64,000 nucleotides of DNA, from positions 59,472-123,471 of the forward strand of contig JANNRA010000032.1 in assembly GCA_031401035.1 (NCBI GenBank), in the 5' to 3' direction. Below are positions 1 to 60,038 of the stretch, one piece after another. The notes beneath the pieces were generated by a model. It saw nothing but the letters and a program-made list of their open reading frames with translations. It was not told the origin of the DNA and searched no databases. A program made the translations under genes and the position numbers. The DNA is from a bacterium. Lineage in GTDB: Bacteria; Desulfobacterota; Binatia; HRBIN30; CADEER01. How positions within the stretch are numbered: position 1 is the first letter of the stretch; each line of letters begins with the position of its first letter.

Positions 1-704
1 TCGCCACCGCGCCCACCGTTGCCTACCGGGTGAAGACCATCAAGGGGGAGTACATCCTGGTCGACAGCCCCGCCAAGCTGCCCGACCCAAGCCTGATCGA
101 GGTCATCGAGGAACCGTACATCCTGGCGTCCATCCACGTGCCGGAGAGCTACCTCGGCGGCGTTCTGAAACTGTGCGAGGACAAGCGCGGTCGCCAGAAG
201 GGGATGCGCTATCTCGGCGTCACGCGCGTGCTGCTCGAGTATGAGTTGCCGCTCAACGAGGTGGTCCTCGATTTCCACGATCGCCTGAAGTCGGTGAGCA
301 AAGGCTACGCATCGCTGGACTACGAGTTCATCGAATTGCGCCCCGGCGACCTCGTCAAGCTCGACGTGCGCGTCAATGGCGAACCGGTCGACGCCATGTC
401 GCTGATCGTCCACCGCGACCGCGCCTACCAGCGCGGCCGCGACGTCATCGAGATTATGAAGGGGTTGATCCCGCGGCAGATGTTCGAGGTCGTGCTGCAG
501 GCGGCGATCGGCGCCAAGATCATCGCCCGCGAGACGGTGCGGGCGCTGCGCAAGAACGTCACCGCCAAGTGCTACGGCGGTGACATCTCGCGCAAGCGCA
601 AGCTCCTCGAGAAGCAGAAGGAAGGCAAGAAGCGGATGAAGCAGGTCGGCAGCGTCGAGATTCCGCAAGAAGCCTTTCTCGCCGTCCTCAAGGTGCCTGC
701 CTGA
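1..704 (+). CDS. lepA: Elongation factor 4 (LepA), C-terminal fragment; 5' end lies outside the window
   Basis: Translation ends ...[42 protein letters not shown], the typical LepA C-terminal domain. The ORF is open to base 1. The classic lepA-lepB neighbourhood follows. Confidence 0.9.
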
Positions 705-751: not shown

Positions 752-1297
752 GTGCTGTTGCGCGGCATCGCCGTGCAGGCGTTCAAGATCCCCTCCGGAT
801 CGATGCTGCCGACGCTGCAGATCGGCGATCATCTGGTCATCAACCCGCTGCGCTATGGCGTGCGCTCGCCCCTGGGGCGCGGATGGTTGGTGCGCTGGGG
901 CGCGCCGCGCCCCGGCGACGTGATCGTGTTCTCCAATCCGCGCGAAAGTGGTCAAACGTTCGTCAAGCGGGTGGTCGCCGTCGGTGGCGAACGGGTCGAG
1001 ATTCGCGACAAGCAGGTGCTGGTCGACGGCGTCCCGCGCGCGCTCCCCGGCGCCACCTTCATCGAGGGGGTCGAGCGCGTGCAATCAAGCGGTCCGCGCG
1101 ATACCTTCGGTCCGGTAGCGATACCAGCGGGTCAGGTGTTCGTGCTAGGGGACAACCGTGATCAGAGCGTCGACAGCCGTCACTGGGGCTTCGTCGACGC
1201 CAACGATGTGAGCGGCAAAGCCGCCTTGGTCTACTGGTCGATGGATGCGGATGATGGGTGGGTACGATGGGAGCGGCTGGGGCAGTTCGTGCGCTGA
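752..1297 (+). CDS. lepB: Signal peptidase I
   Basis: The N-terminal hydrophobic helix is followed by KIPSGSMLPTL (Ser box) and GDNRDQSVDSRHWGFV (box E). It lies immediately downstream of lepA. GTG is the first in-frame start; the true start may be a few codons upstream. Confidence 0.85.
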   Translation: MLLRGIAVQAFKIPSGSMLPTLQIGDHLVINPLRYGVRSPLGRGWLVRWGAPRPGDVIVFSNPRESGQTFVKRVVAVGGERVEIRDKQVLVDGVPRALPGATFIEGVERVQSSGPRDTFGPVAIPAGQVFVLGDNRDQSVDSRHWGFVDANDVSGKAALVYWSMDADDGWVRWERLGQFVR

Positions 1298-1343
1298 AGC
1301 GCGACTCCGGCGGTTGCCAGAATCACGGTAAACTACGGAGGCT

Positions 1344-3851
1344 TTGATGCGTATTCCCAGTATGGCGGCGGTGGCCGCGGTGGCGGTGATGCTCCCGGCG
1401 GTGGCGGGCGCGAACAGCGCAATTTTCCGCTCGGCGTTCACCGAGTTCACCTCGTCGGGCAATGCCACGGGCATTGCCGTCGGCGACTTCGACGGCGACG
1501 GCAGTACGGACGTCGTCACGTCGAATGCAGGCCTTGGGCGCAACGAACTCAATGTGCTGACCGGATTCGGCGACGGCACGCTGGTGTCGGCGCAGCCGAC
1601 GGTGCCCATCGACAGTTTTCCCTCGGGACTGGTGCTGGCGGATTTCGACGGCGACGGCGTCGACGATCTGATTGTCGCGCTGGCCAACGAGAACGCCGTG
1701 ACGTTCCTCAAGGGGCGGGCTGACCAGGACTTCTTCGATCTGCCCGCTGCGTCCATCCGAGTCGGCACCAGCCCGGCGGGCATGGCGGCGGCAGACCTCA
1801 CCGGCGAAGGCCAGCTGGACCTCGTCGTCGCCAACGAGGGCAGCGACGGGGCGCCCGGGTCAGTGTCCTTTCTCGCCGGCAACGGCGACGGCACGTTCAC
1901 AATCATCCTGCAGGATGACCCCGCCGAGCCTGGCGAGCAGGTCAGCGCGCTGGCGACCGACCTCGGTACGCGCGCCGTCGCACTGGGCAACCTCGACGCG
2001 GTGCCCGGTGTCGACGTGGCGGCGCTGAATCTGCGCGCCAACACCCTGACGCTGTTCCGCGGCGACGGCCAGGGCGCATTCGTCCCTGCCGGCACGTTGC
2101 CAACGGGAGCGGCGCCGCAGGACCTGCGGCTGGTCGACCTCGACGGCGACGGCAAACTCGATCTGATCATCGCCGCCGGCAATGAAGACGCGGTGACGGT
2201 GCAGCGCGGCAATGGTGATCTGACGTTCCAGGCGGCGGCCGAGTATGCCGTCGGCACTGTGCCGACGCGACTGGCGGTCGGTGACCTCGACGACAACGGG
2301 ACGCTTGATATCCTCGCCAGCAACAGTCGCAGCGGTGATGTCAGCCTGCTGCGTGGCGATGGCGCGGGCGCCTTCAGTGCGGCGCGGACGTTCGTCGCGG
2401 ACGCCGAGCCGCAGGCTTTGACGATCGCCGACCTGGACGGCGACGGGCTGCTCGATGCGATCGCCGCCACCCAGGGGGGCGACGGCGGCGCCACGGTGGC
2501 CGTGCTGCGTAATCGCGGTGAGGGGATCTTGCAGGCGGTCGAAGATCTGCCAGCCGGCAACGGCCCGTCGGCGGTGGCGTCGGCCGACATGGACGACGAC
2601 GGCGTCGCCGATCTGATCGTCGCCGGCGATGGCGGCGAGGTGCTGATCTTCCCAGCCCGAGGCGGCGCCTTCGGAGCGCCCGTGACAACCAGCGTTGGCG
2701 GGCGCACGCTGGCATTGGCCGCCCGCGATCTGAACGGCGATGCGCGTCCGGACCTCGCCGTCGTCGACAACGAAACCAACCGCGTCGCGGTGTTGCTGGC
2801 GACCGGGCCGAACCAGTTCGGCCCGACGCAGCTCTATCCGGTGGCCGAAGGACCGGGCGGCATCACGACCGGTGATTTCAACGCCGATGGACGCGTCGAC
2901 CTGGCGGTGTCCGCCATCGGCCCTCCGGGGCGTGCGTCGGTGCTCCTACAGCAACCGAATGGCTCGTTCGGGACGGCGCGCAGCACCCTGCTCGAAGGCG
3001 AGGAGACCCCGCTCGGCATCGCTGCGGTCGACGCCAATTGCGATGGGCGCGACGATCTGGTCATCGCCAATCAGGCGACCAACACCGTCAGCGTGCTGCG
3101 CAGTAACGGCGACGGGACCTTTGCGATCGTGCAGACCCTGGCCGAGGCGCAGGTCGGGCAGGGGCCGATCGGCATCGCGGTCGCGGACTTCACGCGCGAT
3201 GGGGTGGGGGACTTCGCGGTCAGCAATTCCGTCGTGCCCGGCAGCCAGCCGAGTGTGCGCGTCTTCCGTGGTGTCTGCGACGGCGGCTTCGCGCTGCTCG
3301 CGGCGCTGCGCGCCGGCGATCTGGTGTCCGCCCTGGTGGCGCGCGACTTCACCGGCGATCAGATCGTCGATCTCGGGCTGGTGAACCAGACATCGAACGC
3401 CCTGCGCGTTTTCCGTGGCACCGGCAACCCGAGTCCGGCCTTCCAGGGAAGCCAGCCGGACGCGGTGAGTCGCATGCCGATCGCCATCGCCGCCGGAGAC
3501 TTCGACGGCGACGGACGCTACGATGCCACCAGCGCCAATAGTGATCCCAGCGCCAACAACGTCTCGGTGCTGTACAATTGCGCTCGCGACGTCGGCTGTG
3601 ACCCGTTTGGTTCTCCCGGGCCGGCCGGCGCGGCGGCGCGCCGCGGCGACGGCAACGGTGACACGGCGCGCTCGGCGGCGGACCTGGTGGCGGTCGGTCG
3701 CGAAGTGATGGACGGTGACGGTCGCCAGGTGGAAGGCATCGGCTTCGGCAGCGGCTTCGCCGCGACGCCAGGCGTCGACGCCAATGGCGACGGCGTCGTC
3801 TCCGCCCAGGACAGCAGCGCCGTGGCGCACCGCATCTTCGGCGGCGCGTGA
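1344..3851 (+). CDS. Secreted FG-GAP/VCBS repeat protein with a C-terminal dockerin-like Ca-binding module
   Basis: Signal peptide MMRIPSMAAVAAVAVMLPAVAGANS. There are more than 10 repeats of the motif (V/A)xxDFDGDGxxDL(V/I)xx(N/A). The C-terminus, ...GDGNGDTARSAADLV...GVDANGDGVVSAQDSSAVAHRIFGG, looks like a dockerin type I duplicated Ca-binding loop pattern. Confidence 0.8.
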   Translation: MMRIPSMAAVAAVAVMLPAVAGANSAIFRSAFTEFTSSGNATGIAVGDFDGDGSTDVVTSNAGLGRNELNVLTGFGDGTLVSAQPTVPIDSFPSGLVLADFDGDGVDDLIVALANENAVTFLKGRADQDFFDLPAASIRVGTSPAGMAAADLTGEGQLDLVVANEGSDGAPGSVSFLAGNGDGTFTIILQDDPAEPGEQVSALATDLGTRAVALGNLDAVPGVDVAALNLRANTLTLFRGDGQGAFVPAGTLPTGAAPQDLRLVDLDGDGKLDLIIAAGNEDAVTVQRGNGDLTFQAAAEYAVGTVPTRLAVGDLDDNGTLDILASNSRSGDVSLLRGDGAGAFSAARTFVADAEPQALTIADLDGDGLLDAIAATQGGDGGATVAVLRNRGEGILQAVEDLPAGNGPSAVASADMDDDGVADLIVAGDGGEVLIFPARGGAFGAPVTTSVGGRTLALAARDLNGDARPDLAVVDNETNRVAVLLATGPNQFGPTQLYPVAEGPGGITTGDFNADGRVDLAVSAIGPPGRASVLLQQPNGSFGTARSTLLEGEETPLGIAAVDANCDGRDDLVIANQATNTVSVLRSNGDGTFAIVQTLAEAQVGQGPIGIAVADFTRDGVGDFAVSNSVVPGSQPSVRVFRGVCDGGFALLAALRAGDLVSALVARDFTGDQIVDLGLVNQTSNALRVFRGTGNPSPAFQGSQPDAVSRMPIAIAAGDFDGDGRYDATSANSDPSANNVSVLYNCARDVGCDPFGSPGPAGAAARRGDGNGDTARSAADLVAVGREVMDGDGRQVEGIGFGSGFAATPGVDANGDGVVSAQDSSAVAHRIFGGA

Positions 3852-3852
3852 G

Positions 3853-4290
3853 GTGGTCGACGAGGCCCGCCTGCAGAAGGATCTGCAGGACGCGATGCGC
3901 GCCCGCGACCGGGTGCGCCTCGATGTGTTGCGCGGTGTCATCACCGCGGTGAAACACACCAAGGTCGAGAAGCAGCTGTCCGATGTACCGGAGGCGGAGA
4001 TTCTCGCCGTGCTGCGCCGAGAGCTCAACAAGCGGGCGGAGATTGCCGACTTCGCCCGCAAAGCCGGGCGCGACGAGACGGTGGCGCAGGCCGCCGCCGA
4101 GCAGTCGATCATTGAAGCGTACCTGCCGGCGCAGATGGATGCCGCGGGTCTCGAGGCCGCCATTCGCGCCATCGCCGCCGAGCTCGGCAGCGCACAGATC
4201 GGCCCGGTGATGGCCGAACTGCGGGCTCGCCATGCCGGTCAGTTCGACGGCAAGCTGGCCAGCCAGCTGATCAAGCAGCTGCAGGGCTGA
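3853..4290 (+). CDS. yqeY: GatB/YqeY domain protein
   Basis: VVDEARLQKDLQDAMRARDRVRLDVLRGVITAVKH...AELRARHAGQFDGKLASQLIKQLQ matches the YqeY family (about 145 aa). The GTG start overlaps the stop of the upstream gene. Confidence 0.75.
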   Translation: MVDEARLQKDLQDAMRARDRVRLDVLRGVITAVKHTKVEKQLSDVPEAEILAVLRRELNKRAEIADFARKAGRDETVAQAAAEQSIIEAYLPAQMDAAGLEAAIRAIAAELGSAQIGPVMAELRARHAGQFDGKLASQLIKQLQG

Positions 4291-5561: not shown

Positions 5562-6989
5562 ATGCTCGCTGCACCGCTCGCCGCCGCGCTCGCCGACCTG
5601 GTCGGCGAGGAGGGGCTGATCACCCGCCCGGCAGACACGCGCGTCTATGAGTGCGACGGCTGGACGCTCGAACGGCGGGCGCCTGACGCGGTGGTGCTGC
5701 CGCGCACGGCGGCTGAGGTGGCGGCGGTGCTGCGGCTGCTGCATGCGCGCGGCATCGCCTTCGTGCCGCGGGGCGCCGGTACCGGGCTGTCCGGGGGAGC
5801 GCTGCCGCTCGACGCGTCGGTGATGATCTGCACCAGCCGCCTGAAGCGCATCGTCGACATCGACCTGGCCAATTGCCGCGCCGTGGTGGAGGCGGGGGTC
5901 GTGAACCTGGCCGTGACGCGCGCCGTGGCGGCGCAGGGGCTCTTCTACGCGCCAGACCCGTCCAGCCAATCGGCCTGCACCATCGGCGGCAACATCGCCG
6001 AGAACTCCGGCGGGCCGCACACGCTGAAGTACGGCGTCACGACGAACCATGTCCTCGGGCTCGAACTGGTGCTGCCGGATGGCGAGGTCGTGGAGCTCGG
6101 TGGAGCGGCGGAAGACGTGCCGGGCTACGATCTGCGCGGCCTCGTCATCGGCGCCGAGGGGACGATGGGGGTTGTGACCCGGGCGACGCTGCGCCTGACG
6201 CCGGTCCCGGAGGGTGTACGGACGCTGTTGGCGGTATTCGAGTCGGTCGACGACGCCTGCACCGCGGTGTCGGGCATCATCGCCGCGGGGATCGTGCCGG
6301 CGGCCCTGGAGATGATGGATCAGCTCATCGTCCAGGCCGTCGAGGCCGCCTTCCACGTCGGCTTTCCGGTCGACGCCGGCGCCGTGCTGTTGGTCGAGCT
6401 CGACGGCGCGACGGCCGAACTCGACGAACAGGCGATCGCGGTGGAGACGATCTGCCGGGCGCATGCCGCGCGCGAGGTGCGCCTCGCCGCCGACGCCGCC
6501 GAGCGCGCCGCCCTGTGGAAGAGCCGCAAGCGCGCCTTTGGGGCCGTCGGCCGCCTGGCGCCGAACTACTGCACGCAGGATGGCGTCGTGCCGCGCACGA
6601 AGGTGCCCGACATCCTGCGCGCCATCAGCGCGATCGCCACCAGGCACGGCCTGCGTATCGCCAATGTCTTCCACGCCGGCGACGGGAACATCCATCCGAT
6701 TCTGCTCTATGACGAGCGCGACGCGGACGAGGTGCGGCGCGTCATTGCCGCCGGCCACGAGATCTTGCGCGCCTGCGTCGATCTCGGCGGCAGCATCACC
6801 GGCGAGCACGGCATCGGCGTCGAGAAGATTCAGGAGCTGTCGCTGCTCTTCGGTCCCGCCGATCTGTTGGTGATGCAGCAACTGCGCGGCGCCTTCGATC
6901 CGCTCGGACGCAGCAACCCGGGCAAGATCTTCCCGACCCCGGGGACGTGCGTCGAGGTGTCGCGACCGCACCGCCAGGTGGCGCTGTGA
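5562..6989 (+). CDS. glcD: Glycolate oxidase FAD-linked subunit GlcD (FAD-binding oxidase, PCMH-type)
   Basis: It has the VVLPRTAAEVAAVLRLLHARGIAFVPRGAGTGLSGGA FAD-binding signature, is 475 aa, and is first in the glcDEF order. Confidence 0.85.
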   Translation: MLAAPLAAALADLVGEEGLITRPADTRVYECDGWTLERRAPDAVVLPRTAAEVAAVLRLLHARGIAFVPRGAGTGLSGGALPLDASVMICTSRLKRIVDIDLANCRAVVEAGVVNLAVTRAVAAQGLFYAPDPSSQSACTIGGNIAENSGGPHTLKYGVTTNHVLGLELVLPDGEVVELGGAAEDVPGYDLRGLVIGAEGTMGVVTRATLRLTPVPEGVRTLLAVFESVDDACTAVSGIIAAGIVPAALEMMDQLIVQAVEAAFHVGFPVDAGAVLLVELDGATAELDEQAIAVETICRAHAAREVRLAADAAERAALWKSRKRAFGAVGRLAPNYCTQDGVVPRTKVPDILRAISAIATRHGLRIANVFHAGDGNIHPILLYDERDADEVRRVIAAGHEILRACVDLGGSITGEHGIGVEKIQELSLLFGPADLLVMQQLRGAFDPLGRSNPGKIFPTPGTCVEVSRPHRQVAL

Positions 6990-8314
6990 GCGACGGCGCC
7001 AGCGCGTCGGTCGAGGCGGCCTGGATCGGCGAGCTGCGCACCCGCCTCGGTGAGGACGTGGTGCGCGCGGGCGACATCGTCTGGCGCTTCGCCGCGGCCG
7101 GCCTGGCGCCTGCCTGCGTCGTCGAACCGGCCGATCTGGCCGGAGTGGTGGCGGCGGTGCAGGCCGCGGCGGCCCTCGACCTCGCCGTGGTGCCGGCCGG
7201 CAACGGGACGCATCTGCACGTCGGCGCCGCGCCGCGTCGCTACGATGTCGCACTCAGCACGCGCCGGCTGCAGCGCGTGCTGGCGCATGATGCCGGCGAT
7301 CTGACGGTGACGGTCGAGGCTGGGTTGACGCTGACAGGGCTCGACTCGGTACTCGGTGAGGCCGGGCAGTGGCTGCCCCTCGACGCTCCGCGGCCCGAGG
7401 CGATGACCGTCGGCGGCGCCGTCGCGGCCGATCGCAGCGGGCCGCTGCGCTTCGGCTACGGGACGCTGCGCGACCAGCTGCTCGGCGTCCGCGCCGTCAT
7501 GGCTGACGGGGCGCTGGTGCGCGGCGGCGGACAAGTGGTGAAGAACGTCGCTGGCTACGACCTGCCGAAGCTGTTCACGGGTTCGTATGGAACCCTGGCC
7601 GTGCTGGTCGAGGCCTCGTTCAAGGTGCAGCCACGCCCCGCCGGCTGGGCGGTGTTCGAGTGGACGGCGCCCGATCTCGCCGCCGCATTGGCGCGCGCCC
7701 AGCGCGTGCGCGGATCGGACGTGCAGCCGTTGATGCTCGAGGCACTCAACGACGCGGCGGCCGAGTCTCTCGGCCTCGACAGCGGCGCCAGCGTGATCCT
7801 CGCTTGTGCCGGCGGAGCCGGGCACCTCGACGAGCAGACGCGGCGCATCGCGCACCTGAGTGCCGGCGAGGCGACGCGGCATGTGCCGGAGCGGGCCGAC
7901 GCCCTCCTGCGGGCGCTGCGCGAGTTCTCGCAGCCGGCCGACGACGGCGCGCTGGTGGCGCGCCTGAGCGGTCTGCCGACGGTACTGCCGGAGCTGCTGG
8001 CGCAACTCGAGGCGGCGGCCGGCGCGGCCGGAGTGGTGGCGGAGATCGCCGCGCACGCCGGCAACGGCGTCGCCTGGTGCCAACTGCTCGGGGCGCAGGA
8101 TGCTGAGCTGGTCGCCGCGCTGGTCGAGGCGCTGCGCGCGGCGGCGCGGCGTGCCGACGCCTGGGTGGTGGTGGAAGCGATGCCAGCCGAGCTGCGCGGC
8201 CGACTCGACCCGTGGGGCTTCGACGGCCCGGCGCTACCTCTGATGCGGCGGGTGAAAGCGGCGTTGGACCCGCGCGACCGCTTCAGTCCCGGCCGCTTTG
8301 TCGGTGGCATCTGA
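6986..8314 (+). CDS. glcE: Glycolate oxidase FAD-binding subunit GlcE
   Basis: The GTG start overlaps the glcD stop (GTGA). It contains a FAD-binding PCMH domain, ...VVPAGNGTHLHVGAAP..., VKNVAGYDLPKLFTGSYGTLAVLVEASFKV. Confidence 0.75.
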   Translation: MSDGASASVEAAWIGELRTRLGEDVVRAGDIVWRFAAAGLAPACVVEPADLAGVVAAVQAAAALDLAVVPAGNGTHLHVGAAPRRYDVALSTRRLQRVLAHDAGDLTVTVEAGLTLTGLDSVLGEAGQWLPLDAPRPEAMTVGGAVAADRSGPLRFGYGTLRDQLLGVRAVMADGALVRGGGQVVKNVAGYDLPKLFTGSYGTLAVLVEASFKVQPRPAGWAVFEWTAPDLAAALARAQRVRGSDVQPLMLEALNDAAAESLGLDSGASVILACAGGAGHLDEQTRRIAHLSAGEATRHVPERADALLRALREFSQPADDGALVARLSGLPTVLPELLAQLEAAAGAAGVVAEIAAHAGNGVAWCQLLGAQDAELVAALVEALRAAARRADAWVVVEAMPAELRGRLDPWGFDGPALPLMRRVKAALDPRDRFSPGRFVGGI

Positions 8315-8315
8315 C

Positions 8316-9587
8316 ATGGCTGGGGAACTACGCGATGCGCGACCGGCGACATTGAACGCGCCACGGCCCAGCGGCCGGGTGGCCGATGCCGCGCTCCTGC
8401 GTGCGTGCGTCCACTGCGGCCTGTGCCTGGAGGCCTGCCCGACCTACCTCGAGCTGGGGACCGAGGCGGACTCGCCGCGTGGCCGCATTCATCTCATTCG
8501 CGCCCTCGAGGACGGCACGCTCGGTCTCGATGCCGAGGTCGTGCGCCACATCGATCTGTGCCTCGGTTGCCGAGCCTGCGAGAGCGCTTGTCCCTCCGGC
8601 GTTCGATATGGAGAGATTATCGAAGAAGCGCGCGGCTACGTCGAAGAGCACGCCAGGCGTCCGTGGCCCGAGCGGCTGCGCCGGCAGGCCATCCTGGCGC
8701 TGTTCCCGTATGCGTGGCGGATGCGCGTCGCGCTCTGGTTTTCCGACCTGGCGCGCGTTATCGGCGTCTGGCCGCTGGTGACGCGCCTCGTCGCCGGGGC
8801 CGACCTCCTGCCGGCGGCGCGGCAGCGCATGCCGGACGGAGCCTTTCATCCGGCGCACGAGGGCGAGCGCCTGCGCGTCGGCCTGCTGACGGGCTGCGTG
8901 GCGGGGGAGCTGTTCGGGGAGGTGAACGCCGCGGCGGTGCGGGTGTTGAACCGCGCCGGCGCCGCCGTCGTCGTGCCGCCGGGGCAGGGATGCTGCGGCG
9001 CGCTGCATCTGCACGCCGGTGATCGGGAGTCGGCGCGCACTTTCGCCCGGCGCAATCTGGATGCCTTCCCGGACGAGGTCGACGCGGTCGTGGTGACAGC
9101 GGCCGGCTGCGGGGCGGCGATGAAGGAGTACGGGACCCTACTCGACGGCGAGCCGGGGTACGGCGAGCGGGCTCGCCGCTTCGCCGCCCGCGTCCGCGAC
9201 GTCACCGAGGTGCTCGACGCGGTCGGCGTTGCGCCCGGCACGCGACCGCGGCCGCTGCGGGTTGCCTACCACGACGCCTGCCACTTGGCGCATGCGCAGG
9301 GCGTCCGCGATCAGCCGCGGCGCCTCCTCGCCGGCGTCACAGGACTGGAACTGGTAGAACTCGGCGAGTCCGACGTATGCTGCGGCAGCGCTGGCAGCTA
9401 CAACCTGACGGAGCCGGAGATGGCGCGGCGCCTGCGCGAGCGCAAGATCGATCATATCCTCGCCAGCGGCGCCGAGTGTGTGGCGGCGGCCAATCCCGGT
9501 TGTGCGCTGCAGATTCGCGCCGGCCTGGCGGCGCGCGGCTCAACCGTGCGCGTCGTCCATCCGGTCGAGTTGCTCGACGAGTCGTAG
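8316..9587 (+). CDS. glcF: Glycolate oxidase iron-sulfur subunit GlcF
   Basis: Two 4Fe-4S ferredoxin motifs (CVHCGLCLEACPTY and CLGCRACESACPSG) are followed by CCG-domain cysteines (CCGALH, CCGSAG). The ATG lies 2 nt after the glcE stop. Confidence 0.8.
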   Translation: MAGELRDARPATLNAPRPSGRVADAALLRACVHCGLCLEACPTYLELGTEADSPRGRIHLIRALEDGTLGLDAEVVRHIDLCLGCRACESACPSGVRYGEIIEEARGYVEEHARRPWPERLRRQAILALFPYAWRMRVALWFSDLARVIGVWPLVTRLVAGADLLPAARQRMPDGAFHPAHEGERLRVGLLTGCVAGELFGEVNAAAVRVLNRAGAAVVVPPGQGCCGALHLHAGDRESARTFARRNLDAFPDEVDAVVVTAAGCGAAMKEYGTLLDGEPGYGERARRFAARVRDVTEVLDAVGVAPGTRPRPLRVAYHDACHLAHAQGVRDQPRRLLAGVTGLELVELGESDVCCGSAGSYNLTEPEMARRLRERKIDHILASGAECVAAANPGCALQIRAGLAARGSTVRVVHPVELLDES

Positions 9588-10650: not shown

Positions 10651-12171
10651 TCAGGCGAAGAGCAACGTCACCGCCGGCTTGCGGACCTTGCCCATCGGAT
10701 TGCGGGGCAGGTCGTCGACGATGCGCAAGAGGGTCGGGACCTTGTACGGGGCGAGGTGCTGTTTGGCCCAGGCGCGCAGCTCGTCGATGGCGAGCGTCGC
10801 TCCGGGTACCAGGATGGCGGCGACGCCGACGCGCTGACCCCACTCCTCGTCGGCGACGCCGACGACGGCGCACTCGGCGATGGCCGCATGAGTCCGCAGC
10901 ACCTCTTCGATCTCGAGCGCCGAGACCTTGAAGCCGCCGGTCTTGATAATGTCGATCGAAGCGCGGCCGAGAATGCGCAGACTTCCGTGCTCGCACACGG
11001 CGACGTCGCCGGTGCGGAACCACCCGTCGGCGGTGAATGCCTCTCGGGTCTCCGCGGGCCGGCGCCAGTATTCCTGGAACACCCCACGGCCGCGCACCTC
11101 GATCGCGCCAGGCGAGCCGTCGTCGACCGGTTGGCCGGCCTCGTCCACCAGCCGCACGTCGACGCCGGGGAATGGAACCCCCACATGCCCGGGTTGCCGC
11201 ACCCCGTGCAGTGGATTGCCGAGGCCCATGCCGATTTCCGTCATACCGTAGCGTTCGAGCAGGGTGTGCCCACTGATCTCGCGCCAGGCTTCCAGCAGCG
11301 CGACGGGTAGGGCGGCGGAGCCCGAGACCATCAGCCGCAGACGTCGCGCCCCACTGCTCAGCGCCACACGACGCGGCTCGGGCGCTGCCTCCCAAGCGCT
11401 GCGCAGCCGCGCGTAGATGGTCGGGACGGCCATGAACAGCGTCAGGCTGGGGTCGGCGGCGAGGCGCGTCCAGACGGCGTCGACGTCGAAGCCCTCCTGC
11501 AACTCGCAGACGGCGCCGGCCCACAGGGCGCAGCAGAGGACGTTGAGGATGCCGTGCAGGTGGTGCAGCGGCAGAACATGAAGGATGCGGTCGTCGGCGG
11601 ACCATTCCCACGCTTCGACCACCGAGGCGATCTGCGCCGCCAGCCCGGCGTGGGTCGTGACGACACCCTTGGGACGACTTGTGGTGCCGCTGGTGTACAG
11701 GATCATGGCGCGGCGCTCGCTGGCCCCCTCGGGCAGCGGCGCCGGCGCGCGCTCGAGCAGGTGCTCGATGCTGACGAAACGTCGACCCCGCTGGCGCGCC
11801 AGCGGGGCGATGCGAGCGGCGTAGCGGGCGTCGGCGACGATGATTGCGGCGTCGGAATCGTCGATGGCGTAGCCCAGCTCCGGCGCCGGATGTGTCGTGC
11901 AGAGCGGCACCGCGACGCCGCCGGCGCGCCAGATGCCCCACTGCGCGGTCACATGCGCGCAGCTCGGCCCGACCAGGAAGGCGACGCGTGCTTCTGACAG
12001 GTCCGCGACGCCGTCGAGCAGCCCTGCCGCGACCTGCGCGGAGGTCGCGAGCAGGCGCGCGTAGTCCCAGGTCCCGTCCGGCGCGATCAACGCCGGCCGT
12101 GCGGCGAAGCGGCCGGCGCGCTCGATGATATCCATGGGCGCTCGCGCGGTGTCAGTCCCGTCTCGGCTCAC
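10651..12171 (-). CDS. AMP-dependent synthetase/ligase (acyl-CoA synthetase family)
   Basis: AMP-binding motif ILYTSGTTSRPKGV, plus ...YGMTEIG..., GWFRTGD and the C-terminal PRNPMGKVRK. An alternative start is at Met13 (12135). Confidence 0.8.
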   Translation of the reverse strand: MSRDGTDTARAPMDIIERAGRFAARPALIAPDGTWDYARLLATSAQVAAGLLDGVADLSEARVAFLVGPSCAHVTAQWGIWRAGGVAVPLCTTHPAPELGYAIDDSDAAIIVADARYAARIAPLARQRGRRFVSIEHLLERAPAPLPEGASERRAMILYTSGTTSRPKGVVTTHAGLAAQIASVVEAWEWSADDRILHVLPLHHLHGILNVLCCALWAGAVCELQEGFDVDAVWTRLAADPSLTLFMAVPTIYARLRSAWEAAPEPRRVALSSGARRLRLMVSGSAALPVALLEAWREISGHTLLERYGMTEIGMGLGNPLHGVRQPGHVGVPFPGVDVRLVDEAGQPVDDGSPGAIEVRGRGVFQEYWRRPAETREAFTADGWFRTGDVAVCEHGSLRILGRASIDIIKTGGFKVSALEIEEVLRTHAAIAECAVVGVADEEWGQRVGVAAILVPGATLAIDELRAWAKQHLAPYKVPTLLRIVDDLPRNPMGKVRKPAVTLLFA

Positions 12172-13172
12172 GGCGCGAAGGCCGACAGGATCCGCTCATT
12201 GTTCTCCCGCACGCGTTCGCTGGGCACGCCCACCGAGGGCGCGTAGAAGAGCACTTCGTCGCAGAGGCCCTCCCACTGGCGCAGCCGATCGCGCGCCTCG
12301 TCGGGCGTGCAGGCGATGGCGATCTCATCGACCATCGCGTCGGGAATAGCCGCCGCCATCGCCGCGACGTCGAAGGATGCCAGGGCCGCTCGACACGCGT
12401 CGGCGACCTGCGGCAAGCCATGCAGGCGCAGGATCGTGTGGTAAACCTTCACCGTGTAGTAGAAGCCGATCTGCTGCTTGGCATCCTGTAGCGCCACGGC
12501 GCGATCAGAGTTGATCGAGGTCAGCACGTAGGGCACCAGCCGGCAGGCGCCGGCCGGGCGGCCGGCGGCGGCCTCGGCGGTGCGCAGGGTGGGCAGCGTC
12601 ACCTCGCGGTGCCAGCGGCGCGTTGCAATCGGATGGCCGACGACGCCGTCGGCGACGGCGCCGGCACTGCGCAGCATCGGCTCGTTGACGGCCGCCACCC
12701 ACAGCGGCAGGTCCGGGCGCGCGCCGGGACGCATGTAGACGGGGATGGTGAGGTCCCAGAAACGGCCCTTGAAACGGAAGCCGAAGCCGGCGGCGGCGCG
12801 GAAGGCGGCGCGCAGCAGCTCGACGAGTTCCTTCATCCGGCCGGCCGGCTTCTCGAACGGCACGCCCCACCAGTCGACGTTCATGCGCCGTGTGCCGCTG
12901 CCGAGCCCGAGCACCATCCGCCCGCCGGACAGCTCATCGAGGTCCATCGCAGCCGTGGCGTGCACGAGCGGCGCGCGGGTGAAGGCGTTGGCGATGCCGG
13001 TGCCGATCTGGATGCGCGAGGTGGTGGCGGCGATGGCGCCGAGGACGGCGAAGGCGTGCTGGTTGAAGAACTCGACCGTCAGCACGGTGTCGAAGCCGGC
13101 TCGCTCGGCCTCTTGTGCCAGGGTCAGGTTGCCGCGTGCCGAGCCGGCGGTGAGGATCAGTCCGCGTCGCAT
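12168..13172 (-). CDS. Luciferase-like monooxygenase (LLM) class oxidoreductase, possibly F420-dependent
   Basis: The 334-aa product has LLM-family composition (...GRMVLGLGSG..., TIM-barrel length). Its stop overlaps the acyl-CoA synthetase start by 4 nt. F420 rather than FMN dependence is an inference from family and context. Confidence 0.7.
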   Translation of the reverse strand: MRRGLILTAGSARGNLTLAQEAERAGFDTVLTVEFFNQHAFAVLGAIAATTSRIQIGTGIANAFTRAPLVHATAAMDLDELSGGRMVLGLGSGTRRMNVDWWGVPFEKPAGRMKELVELLRAAFRAAAGFGFRFKGRFWDLTIPVYMRPGARPDLPLWVAAVNEPMLRSAGAVADGVVGHPIATRRWHREVTLPTLRTAEAAAGRPAGACRLVPYVLTSINSDRAVALQDAKQQIGFYYTVKVYHTILRLHGLPQVADACRAALASFDVAAMAAAIPDAMVDEIAIACTPDEARDRLRQWEGLCDEVLFYAPSVGVPSERVRENNERILSAFAP

Positions 13173-13211
13173 CGTCCTCTCCTTCGAGCCCTGATCACAG
13201 AGCCCCGGATG

Positions 13212-13955
13212 CTAGCTCACCAGTCCCAGTCCGCCGTCGACGACGACGATCTCGCCGGTCATGTAGCGCGACTGGATGACGCCGAAGATCGTCTCGGCGA
13301 TGTCCTCGCCGGTCGCCGAGCGTCCGAGCGGGGCGTTCTGTGCGACGAGCGCGTGCAGCCCGGCCCAGTCCTGGGTCCACGGCGTCGCAACCAACCCCGG
13401 CGCCACGGCGTTGACGCGCACCGGGCCAGAGACCTTGGCGAGGAGCTGGGTGAGGTGGTTGATCGCGGCCTTCGAGACGGCGTACGGAATCGAACTGCCG
13501 GTCGGTCGCACGCCGGCGACCGACGTGACGTTGACGATGACGCCGGACGGACTTCGTTTCAGCGCCGGCATGGCGGCGCGGCAGAGGTACCAGGTCCCGA
13601 GCAGGTTGACGTCGAGAATGCGGCGGAAGACCTCGTCGGTGACGGCGTCGAGATCGGCATGCGGGATGAGCTGGGTCGTGCCGGCATTATTGACCAGGAT
13701 GTCGAGGCGGCCGAAGCGCGCCAGCGTCGTGCCAATCAGCGCCTGGCAGGCGGCCTCGTCGGCGACGCTGCCTTGTACGTAACAGGCGTTGGGGAGGGAG
13801 GTGGCGACGCGTTCGCCGGCCTCGACCGACGTCGAGGAGTTGATCACCAGCGCCGCGCCGGCGGCGGCGAGGCGCCGGGCGGTCGCCTCGCCGATGCCGC
13901 TGGAGGAGCCGGTGACGACGGCGACCTGGCCGGCGAGCGCGTCGGATGCCGTCAC
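13212..13955 (-). CDS. Short-chain dehydrogenase/reductase (SDR)
   Basis: VAVVTGSSSGIGEATARRLA (TGxxxGxG), NNAG, and the catalytic S...YAVSKAA motif. The GTG start overlaps the upstream stop (GTGA). Confidence 0.8.
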   Translation of the reverse strand: MTASDALAGQVAVVTGSSSGIGEATARRLAAAGAALVINSSTSVEAGERVATSLPNACYVQGSVADEAACQALIGTTLARFGRLDILVNNAGTTQLIPHADLDAVTDEVFRRILDVNLLGTWYLCRAAMPALKRSPSGVIVNVTSVAGVRPTGSSIPYAVSKAAINHLTQLLAKVSGPVRVNAVAPGLVATPWTQDWAGLHALVAQNAPLGRSATGEDIAETIFGVIQSRYMTGEIVVVDGGLGLVS

Positions 13956-15064
13956 TGGGCGGCGACCGGCTGGTCGTTGTTCGACGTCTTCTGCATGAAC
14001 TGCATGAGCAACTGGACGAGTTCCTGCGGCGGCGTCGTCTCGGGATCCTCGACCGAATCCTTGAGATGCTCGAACTGCAGCAGGTCGAGCTTGGCGTAGG
14101 CCTCGCGCACGCGCGGGGTGAGCAGGCCAAGGCGCTTCAGGTTGGGCACGATCTTCTGGAACATCATCTGCCGGAAGCCGCGCATGAACGGGGTCGTCTC
14201 CGACCACGCCGTCCACACCTTGGGATCCCAGCCGAGGTGTTCGAATACCGGCGTCGGGACGAGGCGCTCGCGCAGCAGGTGGGTGGCTTCGATGACGAAG
14301 TCCTCGCGCTCGCGCAGCTCCGTGGCGCTCATCTGGTTGGTGTACAGATCAGACAGCGACAGGACGCCGAAGGCGACGTGGCGGGACTCGTCCTGCATGA
14401 CGCGCGTGATGAGGTCCTGGATCAGCGGCTCGTCCATCATCTGCATGCGGGTGACGCCGAAGGCCGCCAGCGCCAGGCCCTCGACCATGATCTGCATGCC
14501 GAGGAAGGTGACGTCCCAGCGCGAGTCGCAGACGATGTCGTCGAGCAGCCGGTTCAGGCTCGGCACGCATTCGTACGAGAGGCCCAGCTTCTCGGTCAGG
14601 TAGCGATGGTAGACCTCGACGTGGCGCGCTTCATCCGCCACCTGGTTGGCGGCGTAAAACTTCGCCTCTTCCCACGGCACGCCCTGGACGATCTTCGCCG
14701 TCGCCACCAGCGCGCCCTGCTCGCCGTGCAGGAACTGCGACAACATGAAGGCGTTCATATTGAGCTGGAACTCGATGACCTGCTCGTCGCTCAGCGGCGT
14801 CGGCGGGTTGAGGAGCGAGTTCATCAGCGCCGGCATGCCGTTGGCCACGCGCTGCTTCACCATGCGTTCGATGTTGACGTCGATCGACCAGTCGAGGTCG
14901 TTGGCGTTCCACGTCTGGGTCTTACCCTTCTCGTAAAGGGCGAGCAGGTTCTGCTTCTCGAGCGCATACTTCCAATCGAAGACGGTATCGATGGTGGCGC
15001 GCACCGACTCGAAGGCCGGCCCGCCCTTCCGCAGCGGCAGGGGGTTGTGCTGGGTGTACTGCAT
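13952..15064 (-). CDS. Ferritin-like diiron-carboxylate oxygenase (AurF / acyl-ACP-desaturase-like)
   Basis: Two E...EXXH ligand pairs are present: ...HGEQGA...DEARHVEVYHRY and ...MVEGLA...QDESRHVAFG. The product is 370 aa. Confidence 0.65.
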   Translation of the reverse strand: MQYTQHNPLPLRKGGPAFESVRATIDTVFDWKYALEKQNLLALYEKGKTQTWNANDLDWSIDVNIERMVKQRVANGMPALMNSLLNPPTPLSDEQVIEFQLNMNAFMLSQFLHGEQGALVATAKIVQGVPWEEAKFYAANQVADEARHVEVYHRYLTEKLGLSYECVPSLNRLLDDIVCDSRWDVTFLGMQIMVEGLALAAFGVTRMQMMDEPLIQDLITRVMQDESRHVAFGVLSLSDLYTNQMSATELREREDFVIEATHLLRERLVPTPVFEHLGWDPKVWTAWSETTPFMRGFRQMMFQKIVPNLKRLGLLTPRVREAYAKLDLLQFEHLKDSVEDPETTPPQELVQLLMQFMQKTSNNDQPVAAQ

Positions 15065-18170: not shown

Positions 18171-20699
18171 TCACGATCGAGGCGCGAAGAACGACTGCAT
18201 CTCGCTGAGAACCATATCGGTGTCGCCGATGACGCGGCGGGCTGGGGGCAGCGAGGCGAAGAAGACGCCGCCGTAGCGCTTGTGGACGATGCGGCTGTCG
18301 AGAATGACGACGCAACCGCGGTCGCTGCGGCTGCGGATCAGGCGTCCAAAGCCCTGCTGCAACTTGATCGCCGCCTGCGGCAGGGCGCGCTCGGCGAAGG
18401 GATTGCCGCCGCGTGCGGCAAGGGCTTCGACGCGCGCCTCCTCGAGCGGCTCGGTGGGGACGCGGAAGGGCAGGCGCGCAATGACGACGCAGCGCAGCGC
18501 ATCGCCGCGGACATCGACGCCCTCCCAGAAGCTGTCGACGGCGAAGAGCACGGACGCCGGGGTGGCGACAAAGCGCTGCAGGAGCACGGGGCGACTGACT
18601 TCGCCCTGGCGCAGTGGCAGGTAGCCGGCGTGGCGCAGGTCGTCGGCGAGTGCCGTCCAGGCGTGCGTCAGGGCGCTATAGGAGGTGAACAAGAGGAAGG
18701 TGCCGCCGCGTGTGACGTCGATGATGCGGCGGATGGCGGCGTGGCTGGCGGCGTCGTGACCGACAGCGGTCGGTTCAGGCAGGTCGGCCGGCACGGCGAG
18801 CAGAGCCTGGCGCGCGAAGTCGAAGGGCGACGCGACGCGTAGCGTCTCGACGCGCTCCGGCGGGTCGATGCGGTCGACGCCGATGCGCTGGTGCAGAAAG
18901 TCAAAGCGCCCCTCGACGGTCAGCGTCGCCGAGGTGAGCACCGTGGTGGCGAAGGGGGCGAAGAGGCCCTTGGCGAGCAACGGCCCGACGTCGATCGGCG
19001 CCTGGTGCAGCGACAGGCTGGGCCCGCTGCGGCCGCGTTCGCGGCGCTCGAGCCAGGCGCACTGCCGCGGATCCTCCTCCGTAAAGGCGAGGAGACTGGC
19101 GGCCGTGCCGCGCAGTCGAGCGGCGATGGCGCCGAGCTCGGTGGCGAGGTAGCGGATCTGCGGCGGCGCGTTCTCGGAGAGCAATTCGAGACGTTCGAGC
19201 ACGCCGCCGAGATCGGCCGCGAAACCGTCGAGCGCGGTCGCCAGGCGACCGCTGCGCTCCAGCACGACGCGCCAGAACGGGCCCTCGCGCAGCGCTTCGG
19301 TCACCCGGCGCTTCTCTTCGCGCTCGCCGGGGCGGCGGTCGGGCAGGGCCTCGAAGGCGACGCGCAGGCGGATGAAGTCCTCCTCGGCGTCGGTCGCGAG
19401 GACGCTACAGGCGGGCAGCAGGCGGCTGTCGATCCAATGCGCCGCACCGTGCGCCGCCGGGGCGTCGGCGGGATCGTCGATGGCGTCCAGCGCCAGCGCC
19501 AGCGCCGGCAGCAGTCCCTTGCCCGGATTGCGCCGGCTCTGCAGGCGGGCGAAGGCGCGCTCGATCATGCCCAGCCCCACCTGACTGCCGAAGTAGGCGG
19601 TGGCGACATCCTCGAGATGGTGCGCCTCGTCGATGATGGCGCGCGTGCTCGGCGGCAGGACGCCGTTCTGGCTGTAGTCGCCGACCTCCGCGCGCAGCGC
19701 CAGATCGGCCATCAACAGGTGGTGATTGACGACCAGCACGTCGGCGGCGGCGGCGGCGCGCCGGGCGGTGTAGAAGAAGCAACTGGAGTAGTGCGGGCAG
19801 CGCGCACGCAGGCAGTTGTCATTCTCCGATACCACGTGCTCCCACACCTCCGGGCGCGGGCGTACCGGCAGATCGGCGAGACTGCCGTCGCTGGTGCGGT
19901 GTGCCCAGTCGAGCACCTGGCGCAGCTCGCCGAGCAGCTGGTCATCGACCAACTGCGCCGGCTGCGCCGCCGCCTGCGCCGCCTTGCGCTTGCACAGGTA
20001 GTTGCCACGCCCCTTCACCAGCGCGACGCGCACCTCCAGGCCGGCGCGCTTGGTGAGCAGCGGCAGGTCCTTGGCGACCAACTGTTCCTGGAGATTGATG
20101 GTGTGGGTGGAGACGACGACGCGCTGGTGATTGGCGCGGCTCCAGAGGATTGCCGGCACCAGATAGGCGAGCGATTTGCCCGTGCCGGTGCCGGCCTCGA
20201 CGCTGAGCGCCATGTCGTCGTTGAAGGCGGCGGCGACGGCACCGAGCATGGCGAGCTGCTGCGGGCGGTGCTCATAGCCCTCCAGCGCGGCACCGACCCT
20301 CCCGCCTGGCTCGAGTAGAGCGGCCGCGGCCGTCGCATCGAGCGTCGTCGGGACGCGCTCGGCGTGCGCCTCGACGACCACGTAGACGTGCTCGACGGCA
20401 TTGTCGACGATATAGGCGCCGACGCCGCCGTTGCCGAGCGTCGAGGCGATCGCCAGATCGGCATCAGAGGGTGTCAGGGCGCCGCTGGGATGATTGTGGA
20501 TCACCACCTCGCCGGGGCGTGGTACCTGCATGATCGCCGGCGCGGCGTGACGGTTGCCACGCGCCAGGACGCGCACGCTGGTGACGAGGCGGTCCTCGAG
20601 TCCGCCGAGCACGAAGACCTCGTTGCCGCCGGCGTCGACGATGGCGGCGCGCAGCGCCGCCGCGGCCGCGTTGGTGAAATGCTCGGACACCATCGCCAT
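18171..20699 (-). CDS. DinG/XPD-family Fe-S ATP-dependent DNA helicase with an N-terminal RadC-like JAB/MPN domain
   Basis: N-terminus has VVIHNHPSGALTPSDADLAIASTLG...GAYIVD (RadC/JAMM H-x-H-P-S-G...S..D). Then come Walker A GTGTGKSLAYL, four Cys (CLRARCPHYSSCFFY), DEAH (IIDEAHHLED) and a C-terminal helicase domain (...QGFGRLIRSRSDRGCVVILDSR). Confidence 0.8.
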   Translation of the reverse strand: MAMVSEHFTNAAAAALRAAIVDAGGNEVFVLGGLEDRLVTSVRVLARGNRHAAPAIMQVPRPGEVVIHNHPSGALTPSDADLAIASTLGNGGVGAYIVDNAVEHVYVVVEAHAERVPTTLDATAAAALLEPGGRVGAALEGYEHRPQQLAMLGAVAAAFNDDMALSVEAGTGTGKSLAYLVPAILWSRANHQRVVVSTHTINLQEQLVAKDLPLLTKRAGLEVRVALVKGRGNYLCKRKAAQAAAQPAQLVDDQLLGELRQVLDWAHRTSDGSLADLPVRPRPEVWEHVVSENDNCLRARCPHYSSCFFYTARRAAAAADVLVVNHHLLMADLALRAEVGDYSQNGVLPPSTRAIIDEAHHLEDVATAYFGSQVGLGMIERAFARLQSRRNPGKGLLPALALALDAIDDPADAPAAHGAAHWIDSRLLPACSVLATDAEEDFIRLRVAFEALPDRRPGEREEKRRVTEALREGPFWRVVLERSGRLATALDGFAADLGGVLERLELLSENAPPQIRYLATELGAIAARLRGTAASLLAFTEEDPRQCAWLERRERGRSGPSLSLHQAPIDVGPLLAKGLFAPFATTVLTSATLTVEGRFDFLHQRIGVDRIDPPERVETLRVASPFDFARQALLAVPADLPEPTAVGHDAASHAAIRRIIDVTRGGTFLLFTSYSALTHAWTALADDLRHAGYLPLRQGEVSRPVLLQRFVATPASVLFAVDSFWEGVDVRGDALRCVVIARLPFRVPTEPLEEARVEALAARGGNPFAERALPQAAIKLQQGFGRLIRSRSDRGCVVILDSRIVHKRYGGVFFASLPPARRVIGDTDMVLSEMQSFFAPRS

Positions 20700-39199: not shown

Positions 39200-40369
39200 A
39201 TGAAGTCGGCAGACCGCCTGAAGAAGATCCCGCCATATCTGTTCATGGAGCTGCGTCAGAAGATCGGGCGGGCCAAGGCGGAGGGCAGGGACGTCATCAG
39301 CTTGGCCATTGGCGATCCCGTCGAGCCGACTCCCGAGCCGGTCATCGAGGAGCTGGCGAGGGCGGCGCGGGACCCTGCCAATCATCAGTATCCGACTGAT
39401 GAAGAGAAGGGCATGTTCGGCTTTCGCGAGGCTGTGGCGCGCTGGTACCAGCGCCGTTACGGCGTCACGGTCGACCCCCAAACGGAGGTGCTCGGCCTGA
39501 TCGGTTCCAAGGAGGGCTGCCACCACTTTGCGCTGGCGCGCGTCAATCCGGGCGACGTCGTGTTGATGACCGACCCGGGGTACCCGGCGTACCGCTCGAG
39601 CATCCTGATCGCCGGCGGCGAGCCGGTGAACGTGCCGATTCGCGCCGAGCAGGGCTATCTGCCGGTGCTGCGCGACGTTCCCGTCGAGACGGCGCGGCGG
39701 GCGACCGCGATGTTTCTCAACTACCCCAACAACCCGACCGGAGCGGTGGCGACGCCGGCATTCCTTAAGGAACTGGTCGAGTTCGCCCGTACCTACGACA
39801 TTGCCATCTGCTACGACAATCCGTACATCGAGATCGTCTTCGACGGCGAGCGGCCGCTCAGCTTCCTCTCCGTCCCCGGTGCCAGGGATGTCGGCGTTGA
39901 GCTGAACTCCCTGTCGAAGCCGTTCAACATGACCGGTTGGCGCCTCGGCATGGCGCTGGGAAACCCAGATCTGATCGCCGCGATCTCGAAGGTGAAGGAG
40001 AACACCGATTCGGGGGTGTTCAACGCCGTCCAATACGCGGGCATCGCCGCCTTCGGCCGCTGCGAGGACACGGTTCCGCACATGCTGCAGGTGTACAAGC
40101 GTCGCCGCGACCTGGTGGTGGCGACGCTGCGTCAGGTCGGCATCGACTACACGCCGGCTCGCGGCACCTTCTATATGTGGGTACCGACGCCGAAAGGTGC
40201 GTCGAGTCTCGAGTTCGCCGACCGGCTGCTCGAGCAGGCAAACGTCGTAGTGGCGCCCGGGCGCGGCTACGGCGAGTTCGGCGAGGGATACTTCCGCATG
40301 TCGCTGACCGTCTCCGATGCCCGCCTCGAACAGGCCATGGAGCGCATGCGCGGCGCGTTGGAGGGCTGA
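39200..40369 (+). CDS. dapL: LL-diaminopimelate aminotransferase (DapL-type)
   Basis: MKSADRLKKIPPYLFMEL..., ...NYPNNPTG..., and the SLSKPFNMTGWRLG PLP-lysine motif. GGAG lies 8 nt upstream of the ATG. Confidence 0.8.
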   Translation: MKSADRLKKIPPYLFMELRQKIGRAKAEGRDVISLAIGDPVEPTPEPVIEELARAARDPANHQYPTDEEKGMFGFREAVARWYQRRYGVTVDPQTEVLGLIGSKEGCHHFALARVNPGDVVLMTDPGYPAYRSSILIAGGEPVNVPIRAEQGYLPVLRDVPVETARRATAMFLNYPNNPTGAVATPAFLKELVEFARTYDIAICYDNPYIEIVFDGERPLSFLSVPGARDVGVELNSLSKPFNMTGWRLGMALGNPDLIAAISKVKENTDSGVFNAVQYAGIAAFGRCEDTVPHMLQVYKRRRDLVVATLRQVGIDYTPARGTFYMWVPTPKGASSLEFADRLLEQANVVVAPGRGYGEFGEGYFRMSLTVSDARLEQAMERMRGALEG

Positions 40370-40418
40370 CCTTCGTCGCGGGCGCGTCTGTGCCGCGCCC
40401 GCCGATGCGCAGCCGCGG

Positions 40419-58201: not shown

Positions 58202-58286
58202 CTGCGAATCTCTGGCAGCAAGATCCGTCCAGTGCAAGGAAACGAGCCGGCGTTCCCAGCCGCCCGCCGGCTCGCTACAATGCCGT

Positions 58287-60034: not shown

Positions 60035-60038
<4 letters not shown>
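59307..60038 (+). CDS. Predicted 3'-5' exonuclease, RNase H-like fold related to the PolB exonuclease domain
   Basis: [13 protein letters not shown]... (Exo I D-x-E), ...[13 protein letters not shown]... (Exo II), ...[10 protein letters not shown] (Exo III Y-x3-D). ATGA overlap with the upstream gene. Confidence 0.6.

Follow-up and report, generated by a model that had tools for sequence, protein, structure and literature searches.

Almost everything that is known of dockerins comes from cellulosomes, and for many of the copies outside them neither a partner nor a role has been assigned; what, then, might a dockerin-like module be doing at the end of an exported protein whose gene sits among housekeeping genes? 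The question is raised by a 64,000-nucleotide stretch of bacterial DNA (positions 59,472 to 123,471 of the forward strand of contig JANNRA010000032.1, assembly GCA_031401035.1, of the class Binatia; hereafter ‘the window’, with positions counted from its first letter), in which an open reading frame (ORF) close to the left-hand end encodes a long series of FG-GAP/VCBS repeats followed by two loops of a different kind. An earlier note on this DNA, made from the letters alone, had described a secreted FG-GAP/VCBS propeller protein with a dockerin-like, duplicated Ca-loop tail, and the architecture is upheld here: at the level of the family, the evidence supports the tail as a genuine dockerin-family F-hand pair and not a further FG-GAP loop. 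The features on which the argument draws are collected in Table 1.

The sole two 12-residue EF-type loops of the protein, D769-D780 and D812-D823, lie within its last ~70 residues and place D769/N771/D773/S777/D780 and D812/N814/D816/S820/D823 at loop positions 1/3/5/9/12 (residue numbers throughout follow the 835-residue scheme, in which the ORF is read from position 1344, and not the 834-residue product argued for below). The Pfam family Dockerin_1 (PF00404) aligns across profile positions 2-56 of 57. For this copy the match is marginal, at 22.0 bits on a 98-residue tail and 23.1 bits on a 74-residue tail against a gathering score of 22.9, so that the Pfam check proposed in the earlier note gives a borderline result for it; the same family matches 38 of 38 orthologue tails at E<=1, with a best value of 3e-9. 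EF-hand_5 is found at that threshold in 34 of the 38, whereas EF-hand_7 is found, weakly, in just 13. A profile built from the 38 tails scores 102 bits on the tail of this protein and <5 bits on every blade loop which, along with loops of 12 and not nine residues and the helices that trail them, excludes the tail as a 15th FG-GAP blade.

Several observations weigh against the dockerin assignment and are best set out together. Within the full-length protein, Dockerin_1 reaches just 14.7 bits for this copy. Searched against PDB sequences, the tail profile puts EF-hand pairs about level with dockerins (1e-5 to 1e-3), Entamoeba histolytica CaBP2 (2e-5) and calsensin (3.5e-4) standing slightly above the dockerins themselves (~1e-3). 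In the structural comparison described below, every Foldseek E-value for the tail is >0.1, and the query, a model of the tail alone, has a predicted local distance difference test score (pLDDT) of 66.7; E-values of this size are, however, to be expected because the domain is so small. The single tail sequence, run with phmmer against PDB sequences, gave nothing significant (top match FrpC, E=0.3). Because the PDB profile search ranks both similarly, sequence alone cannot choose between dockerin and EF-hand, and the dockerin assignment rests on topology, on loop position 12 being Asp and not Glu, and on a Pfam match that spans nearly the whole profile.

That topology is the same in both predicted models (tail only and full length): loop-helix, linker, loop-helix, and in neither case does a helix lead into the loop; as modelled, this is the F-hand arrangement of dockerins. 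When the tail model was compared with the PDB using Foldseek, the top 32 matches were dockerins from cohesin-dockerin complexes (probability <=0.97, template-modelling (TM) score 0.6-0.78), with calmodulin-type and EF-hand proteins appearing only at the bottom of the list, at probability <=0.05. EF-hands prefer Glu at loop position 12, and neither that residue nor the entering helices of a canonical EF-hand pair (PF13499 and relatives) are found in the tail, where Asp is invariant at this position in both loops. It is against these observations that we weigh the idea of a generic EF-hand-type calcium buffer or sensor with no docking role, which would leave the protein as one of many uncharacterised VCBS repeat proteins. 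The ranking of CaBP2 and calsensin and the frequency of EF-hand_5 are what such an idea would predict, but the missing entering helices, the Asp at position 12, the nearly full-length match of Dockerin_1 to every tail and the very low probabilities of the EF-hand structures all speak for a dockerin, and we consider a mere buffer or sensor to be very improbable indeed. The earlier note had allowed that the C-terminal segment might resemble generic EF-hand or FG-GAP-like loops and nothing else; profile specificity, the 38 of 38 Dockerin_1 matches and the dockerin structural neighbours indicate otherwise.

Conservation points in the same direction. Across 48 orthologues of 83% to 37% identity, and taking mean top-residue frequency as the measure, no part of the protein is better conserved than the two tail segments (0.77-0.80 versus 0.59-0.61 for the propellers), which we read, from the alignment, as evidence of functional constraint. 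Ca-ligand positions 1, 3, 5 and 12 show little or no variation in both loops. Positions 10 and 11, which are not ligands, are also strongly retained, as Ala-Ala (0.98/0.98) in segment 1 and as Ala-Gln (0.69/0.96) in segment 2. Directly at the start of the module, an R-G-D tripeptide (residues 767-769, positions 3642-3650) is almost invariant (R 100%, G 96%, D 98%); R767, G768 and D769 are best explained as dockerin positions -1, 0 and +1, and their reading as an integrin ligand was rejected because the dockerin architecture accounts for the tripeptide. In dockerins, residues -1 to -3 form a stabilising intramolecular clasp with the C-terminus of the module (PMC3821032); the invariant R(-1)-G0-D1 and the C-terminal F832 seen here match both the G0/D1 convention and the terminal clasp of that account. 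R767 and F832 are a candidate dockerin clasp pair.

Non-cellulosomal dockerins have been surveyed in all three domains of life (Peer et al. 2009, as cited in PMC3821032). The module described here resembles such type-I dockerins in having two duplicated segments of ~22 residues, each a 12-residue D-x-N-x-D-G...D loop with a helix after it, in an F-hand arrangement with Asp at position 12 and G0-D1; in standing at the C-terminus of a secreted protein, after a linker; and in having solved dockerins as the nearest relatives of its predicted fold. It is unlike them in several respects. The Binatia loops start 43 residues apart, whereas in classical type-I dockerins roughly 32-35 residues separate them, and the stretch between the segments, at ~21 residues, is unusually long; within it lies a conserved acidic motif, D-G-D-G-x-x-V-E, that has no counterpart in the Dockerin_1 match and may serve as a third site for metal or in making a contact. 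Ala-Ala and Ala-Gln occupy the positions 10/11 that are Ser-Thr in clostridial dockerins.

The module is also not confined to this family. An exhaustive HMMER search with the tail profile over 1.84 billion representative proteins matched 1,272 representatives at E<=1e-3 and 145 at E<=1e-10, many of them being orthologues of 780-880 residues with the match at the C-terminus. Ten non-orthologue matches were examined by Pfam, seven of which carry Dockerin_1 at the Pfam cutoff: a protein with carbohydrate-binding module (CBM) family 96 (P0189, four copies), P0210 (eight copies), three proteins in which two or three copies are the only domains recognised (P0192, P0196, P0199), a CARDB/PKD protein (P0302) and an FG-GAP protein that is shorter (P0202). 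The other three matched the tail profile only, with no Dockerin_1 at E<=0.001: an S8 subtilase (P0244), an M60 peptidase that has lectin domains (P0282) and a cadherin-like/Big_9 protein (P0312). A portable module on such varied secreted cargo is, as far as these matches go, behaving like a dockerin. A word-indexed protein search with the same profile returned only proteins of <145 residues, the strong matches among which were fragments from the same family.

Ahead of the tail, the protein consists of propeller repeats. FG-GAP_3 (PF13517) matches over 13 stretches with E=1.3e-79 (263 bits against a cutoff of 26.9) and FG-GAP (PF01839) over 12 stretches with E=4.3e-33 (113 bits against a cutoff of 22.1), both strongly, as had been anticipated. 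Where at least 10 repeats had been claimed, 13 canonical nine-residue D-x-D-x-D-G-x-x-D loops can be counted at a spacing of 47-53 residues, and the single 114-residue interval between loops contains one degenerate blade, bringing the total to 14. The full-length AlphaFold2 (AF2) model, built with the 48 orthologues (pLDDT 90.7; predicted TM score, pTM, 0.89), shows regular strands and is all-beta to residue 745, after which come two helices. Compared as a whole chain with the PDB, its best Foldseek matches are the tandem seven-bladed proteins SF3B3 and DDB1, at TM ~0.3 and 10-13% identity; from the blade count and these tandem-propeller matches we infer that the 14 blades form two seven-bladed propellers. 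The likeness to DDB1 and SF3B3 lies in the tandem seven-bladed architecture, and at TM ~0.3 it is an architectural analogy only, since those proteins are WD40-like, intracellular and eukaryotic; as generic tandem propellers, the whole-chain matches gave no lead to function. Thirteen Ca2+ sites are predicted from the blade loops, to which the dockerin tail would add two (15 in all). The FG-GAP/VCBS ‘calcium blade’ propellers (Rigden et al. 2011, PMC3123361) share the ~50-residue repeats, each with a D-x-D-x-D-G-x-x-D loop in the blade; unlike those, the protein described here has the full Ca motif in 13 of 14 blades, a length fixed at 14, and an architecture and gene position that are conserved across the whole class.

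The full-length model also supplies an observation against a tail that reaches outwards. The linker between the propellers and the tail has a pLDDT of 73-84, and so is not predicted to be disordered, and the tail segments rise from the value for the tail alone to 83-90; an ordered linker and this gain in confidence imply that the tail may pack on its own propeller instead of reaching a partner. One can envisage an intramolecular calcium clasp, in which the Ca2+-loaded module packs on one or both propellers and locks or stabilises the double propeller, with no external partner. The high pTM of the whole chain, a linker that is short in most orthologues and a strongly conserved tail, which would fit co-evolution with an equally conserved propeller surface, are all in keeping with this. 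However, linker length differs among orthologues by between 0 and ~45 extra residues, and the Cys-Cys hairpin of the linker is absent in the most divergent of them, both of which argue against one fixed packing, and the module also occurs on unrelated cargo and in multi-copy arrays, as independent docking units would. We regard an internal clasp as possible but doubtful.

The gene itself begins slightly later than first described. The ORF proposed by the earlier note, at 1344..3851 on the forward strand, is present, as is its stop (TGA, 3849-3851), in a window of ~69% G+C, but the 835-residue product is not retained: a Shine-Dalgarno-like GGAGG lies 5 nucleotides before ATG 1347 and 2 nucleotides before TTG 1344, and since TTG 1344 is too near to it, the start is almost certainly ATG 1347, judging from this spacing, giving a product of 834 residues. 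The identical 834-residue product is called in two public assemblies (L064 and L065). Its N-terminus, MMRIPSMAAVAAVAVMLPAVAGA followed by NS, has by eye the marks of a type-I signal peptide, with a positive n-region (Arg), a hydrophobic core and an A-x-A site, and it contains no Cys; the orthologue consensus is MRxR...AxA, and the AF2 model places a helix at residues 4-19 (pLDDT <50). The protein is thus probably exported through Sec and cleaved by signal peptidase I. Inspection of the propeller protein for a lipobox or a C-terminal membrane or hydrophobic segment found neither, an NCBIfam scan of the tail gave neither a sorting-signal nor a family match, and Pfam and NCBIfam together recognised no domain beyond FG-GAP and dockerin in the protein.

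The order lepA-lepB-X-yqeY, where X is the propeller gene, recurs in a 98%-identical metagenome-assembled genome (MAG) and around orthologues at 68%, 42% and 36% identity, with a gap of 0-4 base pairs between the stop of X and the start of yqeY in the loci compared; X appears to be translationally coupled to yqeY, and co-transcription with lepA-(lepB) is predicted. Orthologue identities range from 98% down to ~33%, and the closest labelled relatives are MAGs of Candidatus Binatia. In a synteny survey of one genome per species, covering 24 orthologue loci, nearly all labelled Candidatus Binatia, the tail is present in 24 of 24, about 21 have yqeY as the next gene downstream, and most have lepA on the upstream side. 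At least five of these loci (L007, L014, L020, L021 and L022) have no lepB between lepA and X, so that the earlier placement of the gene right after lepA-lepB, correct for the window, does not extend to an obligatory link with signal peptidase, and a specific functional connection to that enzyme, which we had entertained, is weakened. The copies in L017, L018 and L023 lack the lepA/yqeY housekeeping neighbours and look like paralogues, and tandem second copies with tails of their own (40-73 bits with the tail profile) occur in L004/L010, L007 and L023, those of L004 and L007 at 10960-13446, directly after yqeY, and at 6022-8502, respectively. Both the tail and the synteny are missing from more distant FG-GAP proteins, among them those of Planctomycetota, Acidobacteriota and Streptomyces. 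X is thus a lineage-wide core gene of Candidatus Binatia, held in a housekeeping unit lepA-(lepB)-X-yqeY.

As a separate observation, the conserved block runs on upstream of lepA, beyond the window: in L003, L004 and L005, the three loci whose upstream sequence is long enough, it contains genes for a UDP-glucose/GDP-mannose dehydrogenase and one or two NAD-dependent sugar epimerases/dehydratases, together with a PfkB kinase and a GT2 glycosyltransferase; in L001, a near-identical annotated contig, only two epimerase genes are visible there. These sugar genes possibly point to a connection with the making of envelope polysaccharide.

A core gene in a housekeeping unit is unlike a variable surface adhesin, and this bears on the suggestion, made in the earlier note, that the protein is an integrin-alpha-like surface adhesin. 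We do not sustain that suggestion: the sole export feature is the type-I signal peptide, with no anchor. The likeness to the integrin alpha-subunit propeller is at the repeat level only (the FG-GAP repeat type and its Ca-binding hairpin loops); the extra domains, C-terminal hydrophobic segment and lipobox that were looked for in this connection were not found, and in contrast to integrin alpha the protein has two propellers and not one, and no thigh or calf domains, transmembrane segment or beta-subunit partner.

If the tail is a dockerin, the obvious partner would be a cohesin. Genes of the window were assigned to Pfam families from the near-identical contig L001, by direct scans and, for mdh and sucC, by eye. 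Against a docking role for the tail, neither a cohesin (PF00963) nor a second dockerin is encoded among the window genes thus covered (a set that leaves out the ORFs at 58155-58655 and 59277-60038, in a window beyond which lies the remaining ~98% of the genome), and there is no cohesin at the orthologous loci whose gene tables were read. A scaffoldin-like ORF running from 62241 to the end of the window was tried as a cohesin carrier and ruled out, its homologues being of the lysyl oxidase family. A literature search likewise found no paper mentioning Binatia together with dockerins. To our knowledge, no cohesin is known in the Binatia lineage, and the organism is not demonstrably cellulolytic. 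As for the features of a cellulosome component, the cargo is FG-GAP without a glycoside hydrolase or CBM, and the neighbours are lepA, lepB and yqeY; the protein is non-cellulosomal.

These results bear most directly on classical cohesin-dockerin anchoring, in which the tail would plug into a cohesin or S-layer-linked scaffold encoded elsewhere and the propeller would be displayed as an adhesin. That Pfam and the predicted fold both place the tail among the dockerins would suit such an arrangement, as would the high conservation of positions 10 and 11, which are cohesin contacts in type-I dockerins, and the presence of related modules alongside domains typical of extracellular cargo (proteases, CBMs, cadherin-like and PKD domains). 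Yet the window genes and orthologous loci without a cohesin, the reassignment of the scaffoldin-like ORF, the literature in which Binatia and dockerins do not meet, the lack of an outer-membrane or surface-targeting signal in the protein and a single-copy, core-gene position that is unlike that of adhesins all count against it, and we think anchoring of the classical kind improbable. Many non-cellulosomal dockerins, it should be said, are reportedly found in genomes without a recognisable cohesin.

On balance, and with only limited assurance, we favour a model in which the exported propeller serves as a binding platform in the periplasm or envelope while the dockerin, with Ca2+, engages a conserved partner. 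Following Sec export, the double propeller would fold in a Ca2+-dependent manner; its faces might then act as a platform, in the periplasm or the envelope of the cell, to which a protein or a glycan binds, and the dockerin module would make a Ca2+-dependent protein-protein contact with a conserved partner, which need not be a classical cohesin. We also entertain, as something of a long shot, a more far-reaching speculation: that this is a housekeeping, cohesin-independent use of a dockerin, the protein being a near-universal and possibly essential Binatia factor associated with the envelope or with export and expressed with LepA, LepB and YqeY. Here, a calcium-loaded double propeller with 15 sites would be locked or tethered by a dockerin variant bearing the extra DGDG..VE element; were this true, it would be a housekeeping role for a module otherwise known from extracellular enzyme assembly.

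The case stands out among non-cellulosomal dockerins in that the dockerin is the most conserved part of the protein and is kept by apparently all sampled members of the class, and it is further set apart by a fixed gene position beside housekeeping genes of translation and export. Should a partner for the favoured, partner-binding dockerin be found, the protein would offer a tractable example of non-cellulosomal dockerin function in a Gram-negative-type lineage. Databases already label orthologues as ‘VCBS repeat-containing protein’ or ‘FG-GAP repeat domain-containing protein’; to this we add the dockerin tail, the 14 blades, the corrected start, the class-wide operon context and the linker motif. 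The annotation is improved by these additions; no new kind of system is revealed.

Table 1. Features of the propeller gene, its product and its immediate neighbours (positions in the window; residues in the 835-residue scheme).
Feature	Residues	Positions	Strand	Basis or remark
lepA, 3' part, cut by the window edge		3..704	+	upstream of lepB
lepB, signal peptidase I (Peptidase_S26)		752..1297	+	Pfam on the 99%-identical L001 gene
Shine-Dalgarno-like GGAGG		1337..1341	+	5 nucleotides upstream of ATG 1347
Predicted type-I (Sec/signal peptidase I) signal peptide	1-23	1344..1412	+	predicted cleavage between AGA and NS, by eye
Exported FG-GAP/VCBS double-propeller gene with dockerin tail		1347..3851	+	834 residues from ATG
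Blades 1-7	~28-395	1425..2528	+	Ca loops 48, 100, 151, 265, 314, 363
Degenerate blade of first propeller	~200-230		+	no canonical Ca loop
Blades 8-14	~396-745	2529..3578	+	Ca loops 415, 462, 511, 563, 615, 668, 719
Linker with conserved Cys pair C746, C752 (NCARDxGCDPF)	746-766	3579..3641	+	alignment
Dockerin-family module (67 residues)	767-833	3642..3842	+	Pfam Dockerin_1, Foldseek, conservation
Segment 1: Ca loop D769-G-N771-G-D773...D780 and helix 778-790		3648..3713	+	after R767, G768
Acidic motif D790-G-D792-G793-x-x-V-E797 between segments		3711..3734	+	E797 invariant; D790, D792, G793 >=90%
Segment 2: Ca loop D812-A-N814-G-D816-G...D823 and helix 822-832		3777..3839	+	ends in invariant F832
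yqeY (GatB/YqeY domain)		3853..4290	+	GTG start 1 nucleotide past the propeller-gene stop

A number of other genes in the window deserve brief mention. On the reverse strand, 13952-15064 encodes a 370-residue ferritin-like di-iron protein with sub-threshold matches only, to DUF455 and AurF (p-aminobenzoate N-oxygenase), adjoining a TetR regulator and an acyl-CoA dehydrogenase. A 362-residue ORF of high third-position G+C at 40317-41405 (forward), unmatched in Pfam, runs into the 5' end of the opposite-strand dihydrodipicolinate synthase gene and may be no more than an artefact of high G+C. Between argininosuccinate lyase and diaminopimelate epimerase sits a 164-residue protein (43002-43496, reverse) with a lipobox-like LSGALPAC and a weak fibronectin type III match (E=6e-4, below cutoff), and at 57290-58237 (reverse) lies a 315-residue Cys-rich ORF with a lipoprotein-like N-terminus, LLLTAAAC, and no Pfam match at E<=10. 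The DinG-type helicase at 18171-20699 (reverse; 842 residues; Helicase_C_2, DEAD, DEAD_2) has an N-terminal RadC-like JAB match exactly at the Pfam cutoff, which makes for an unusual fusion.

Lysyl oxidase homologues are uncommon in bacteria, and the ORF at the right-hand edge of the window (62241-64000, forward) encodes, before running off it, the N-terminal 586 residues of a 744-residue secreted protein of this family: an N-terminal hydrophobic signal or anchor, three repeated modules of ~100 residues and a Pro/Thr linker of ~170 residues (PTRTP repeats), none of which has a Pfam or PDB match even at E<=10. The PF01186 domain of the protein falls beyond the window; this domain is present in ~60 homologues of comparable length, and some of the homologues share contigs with orthologues of the propeller gene.

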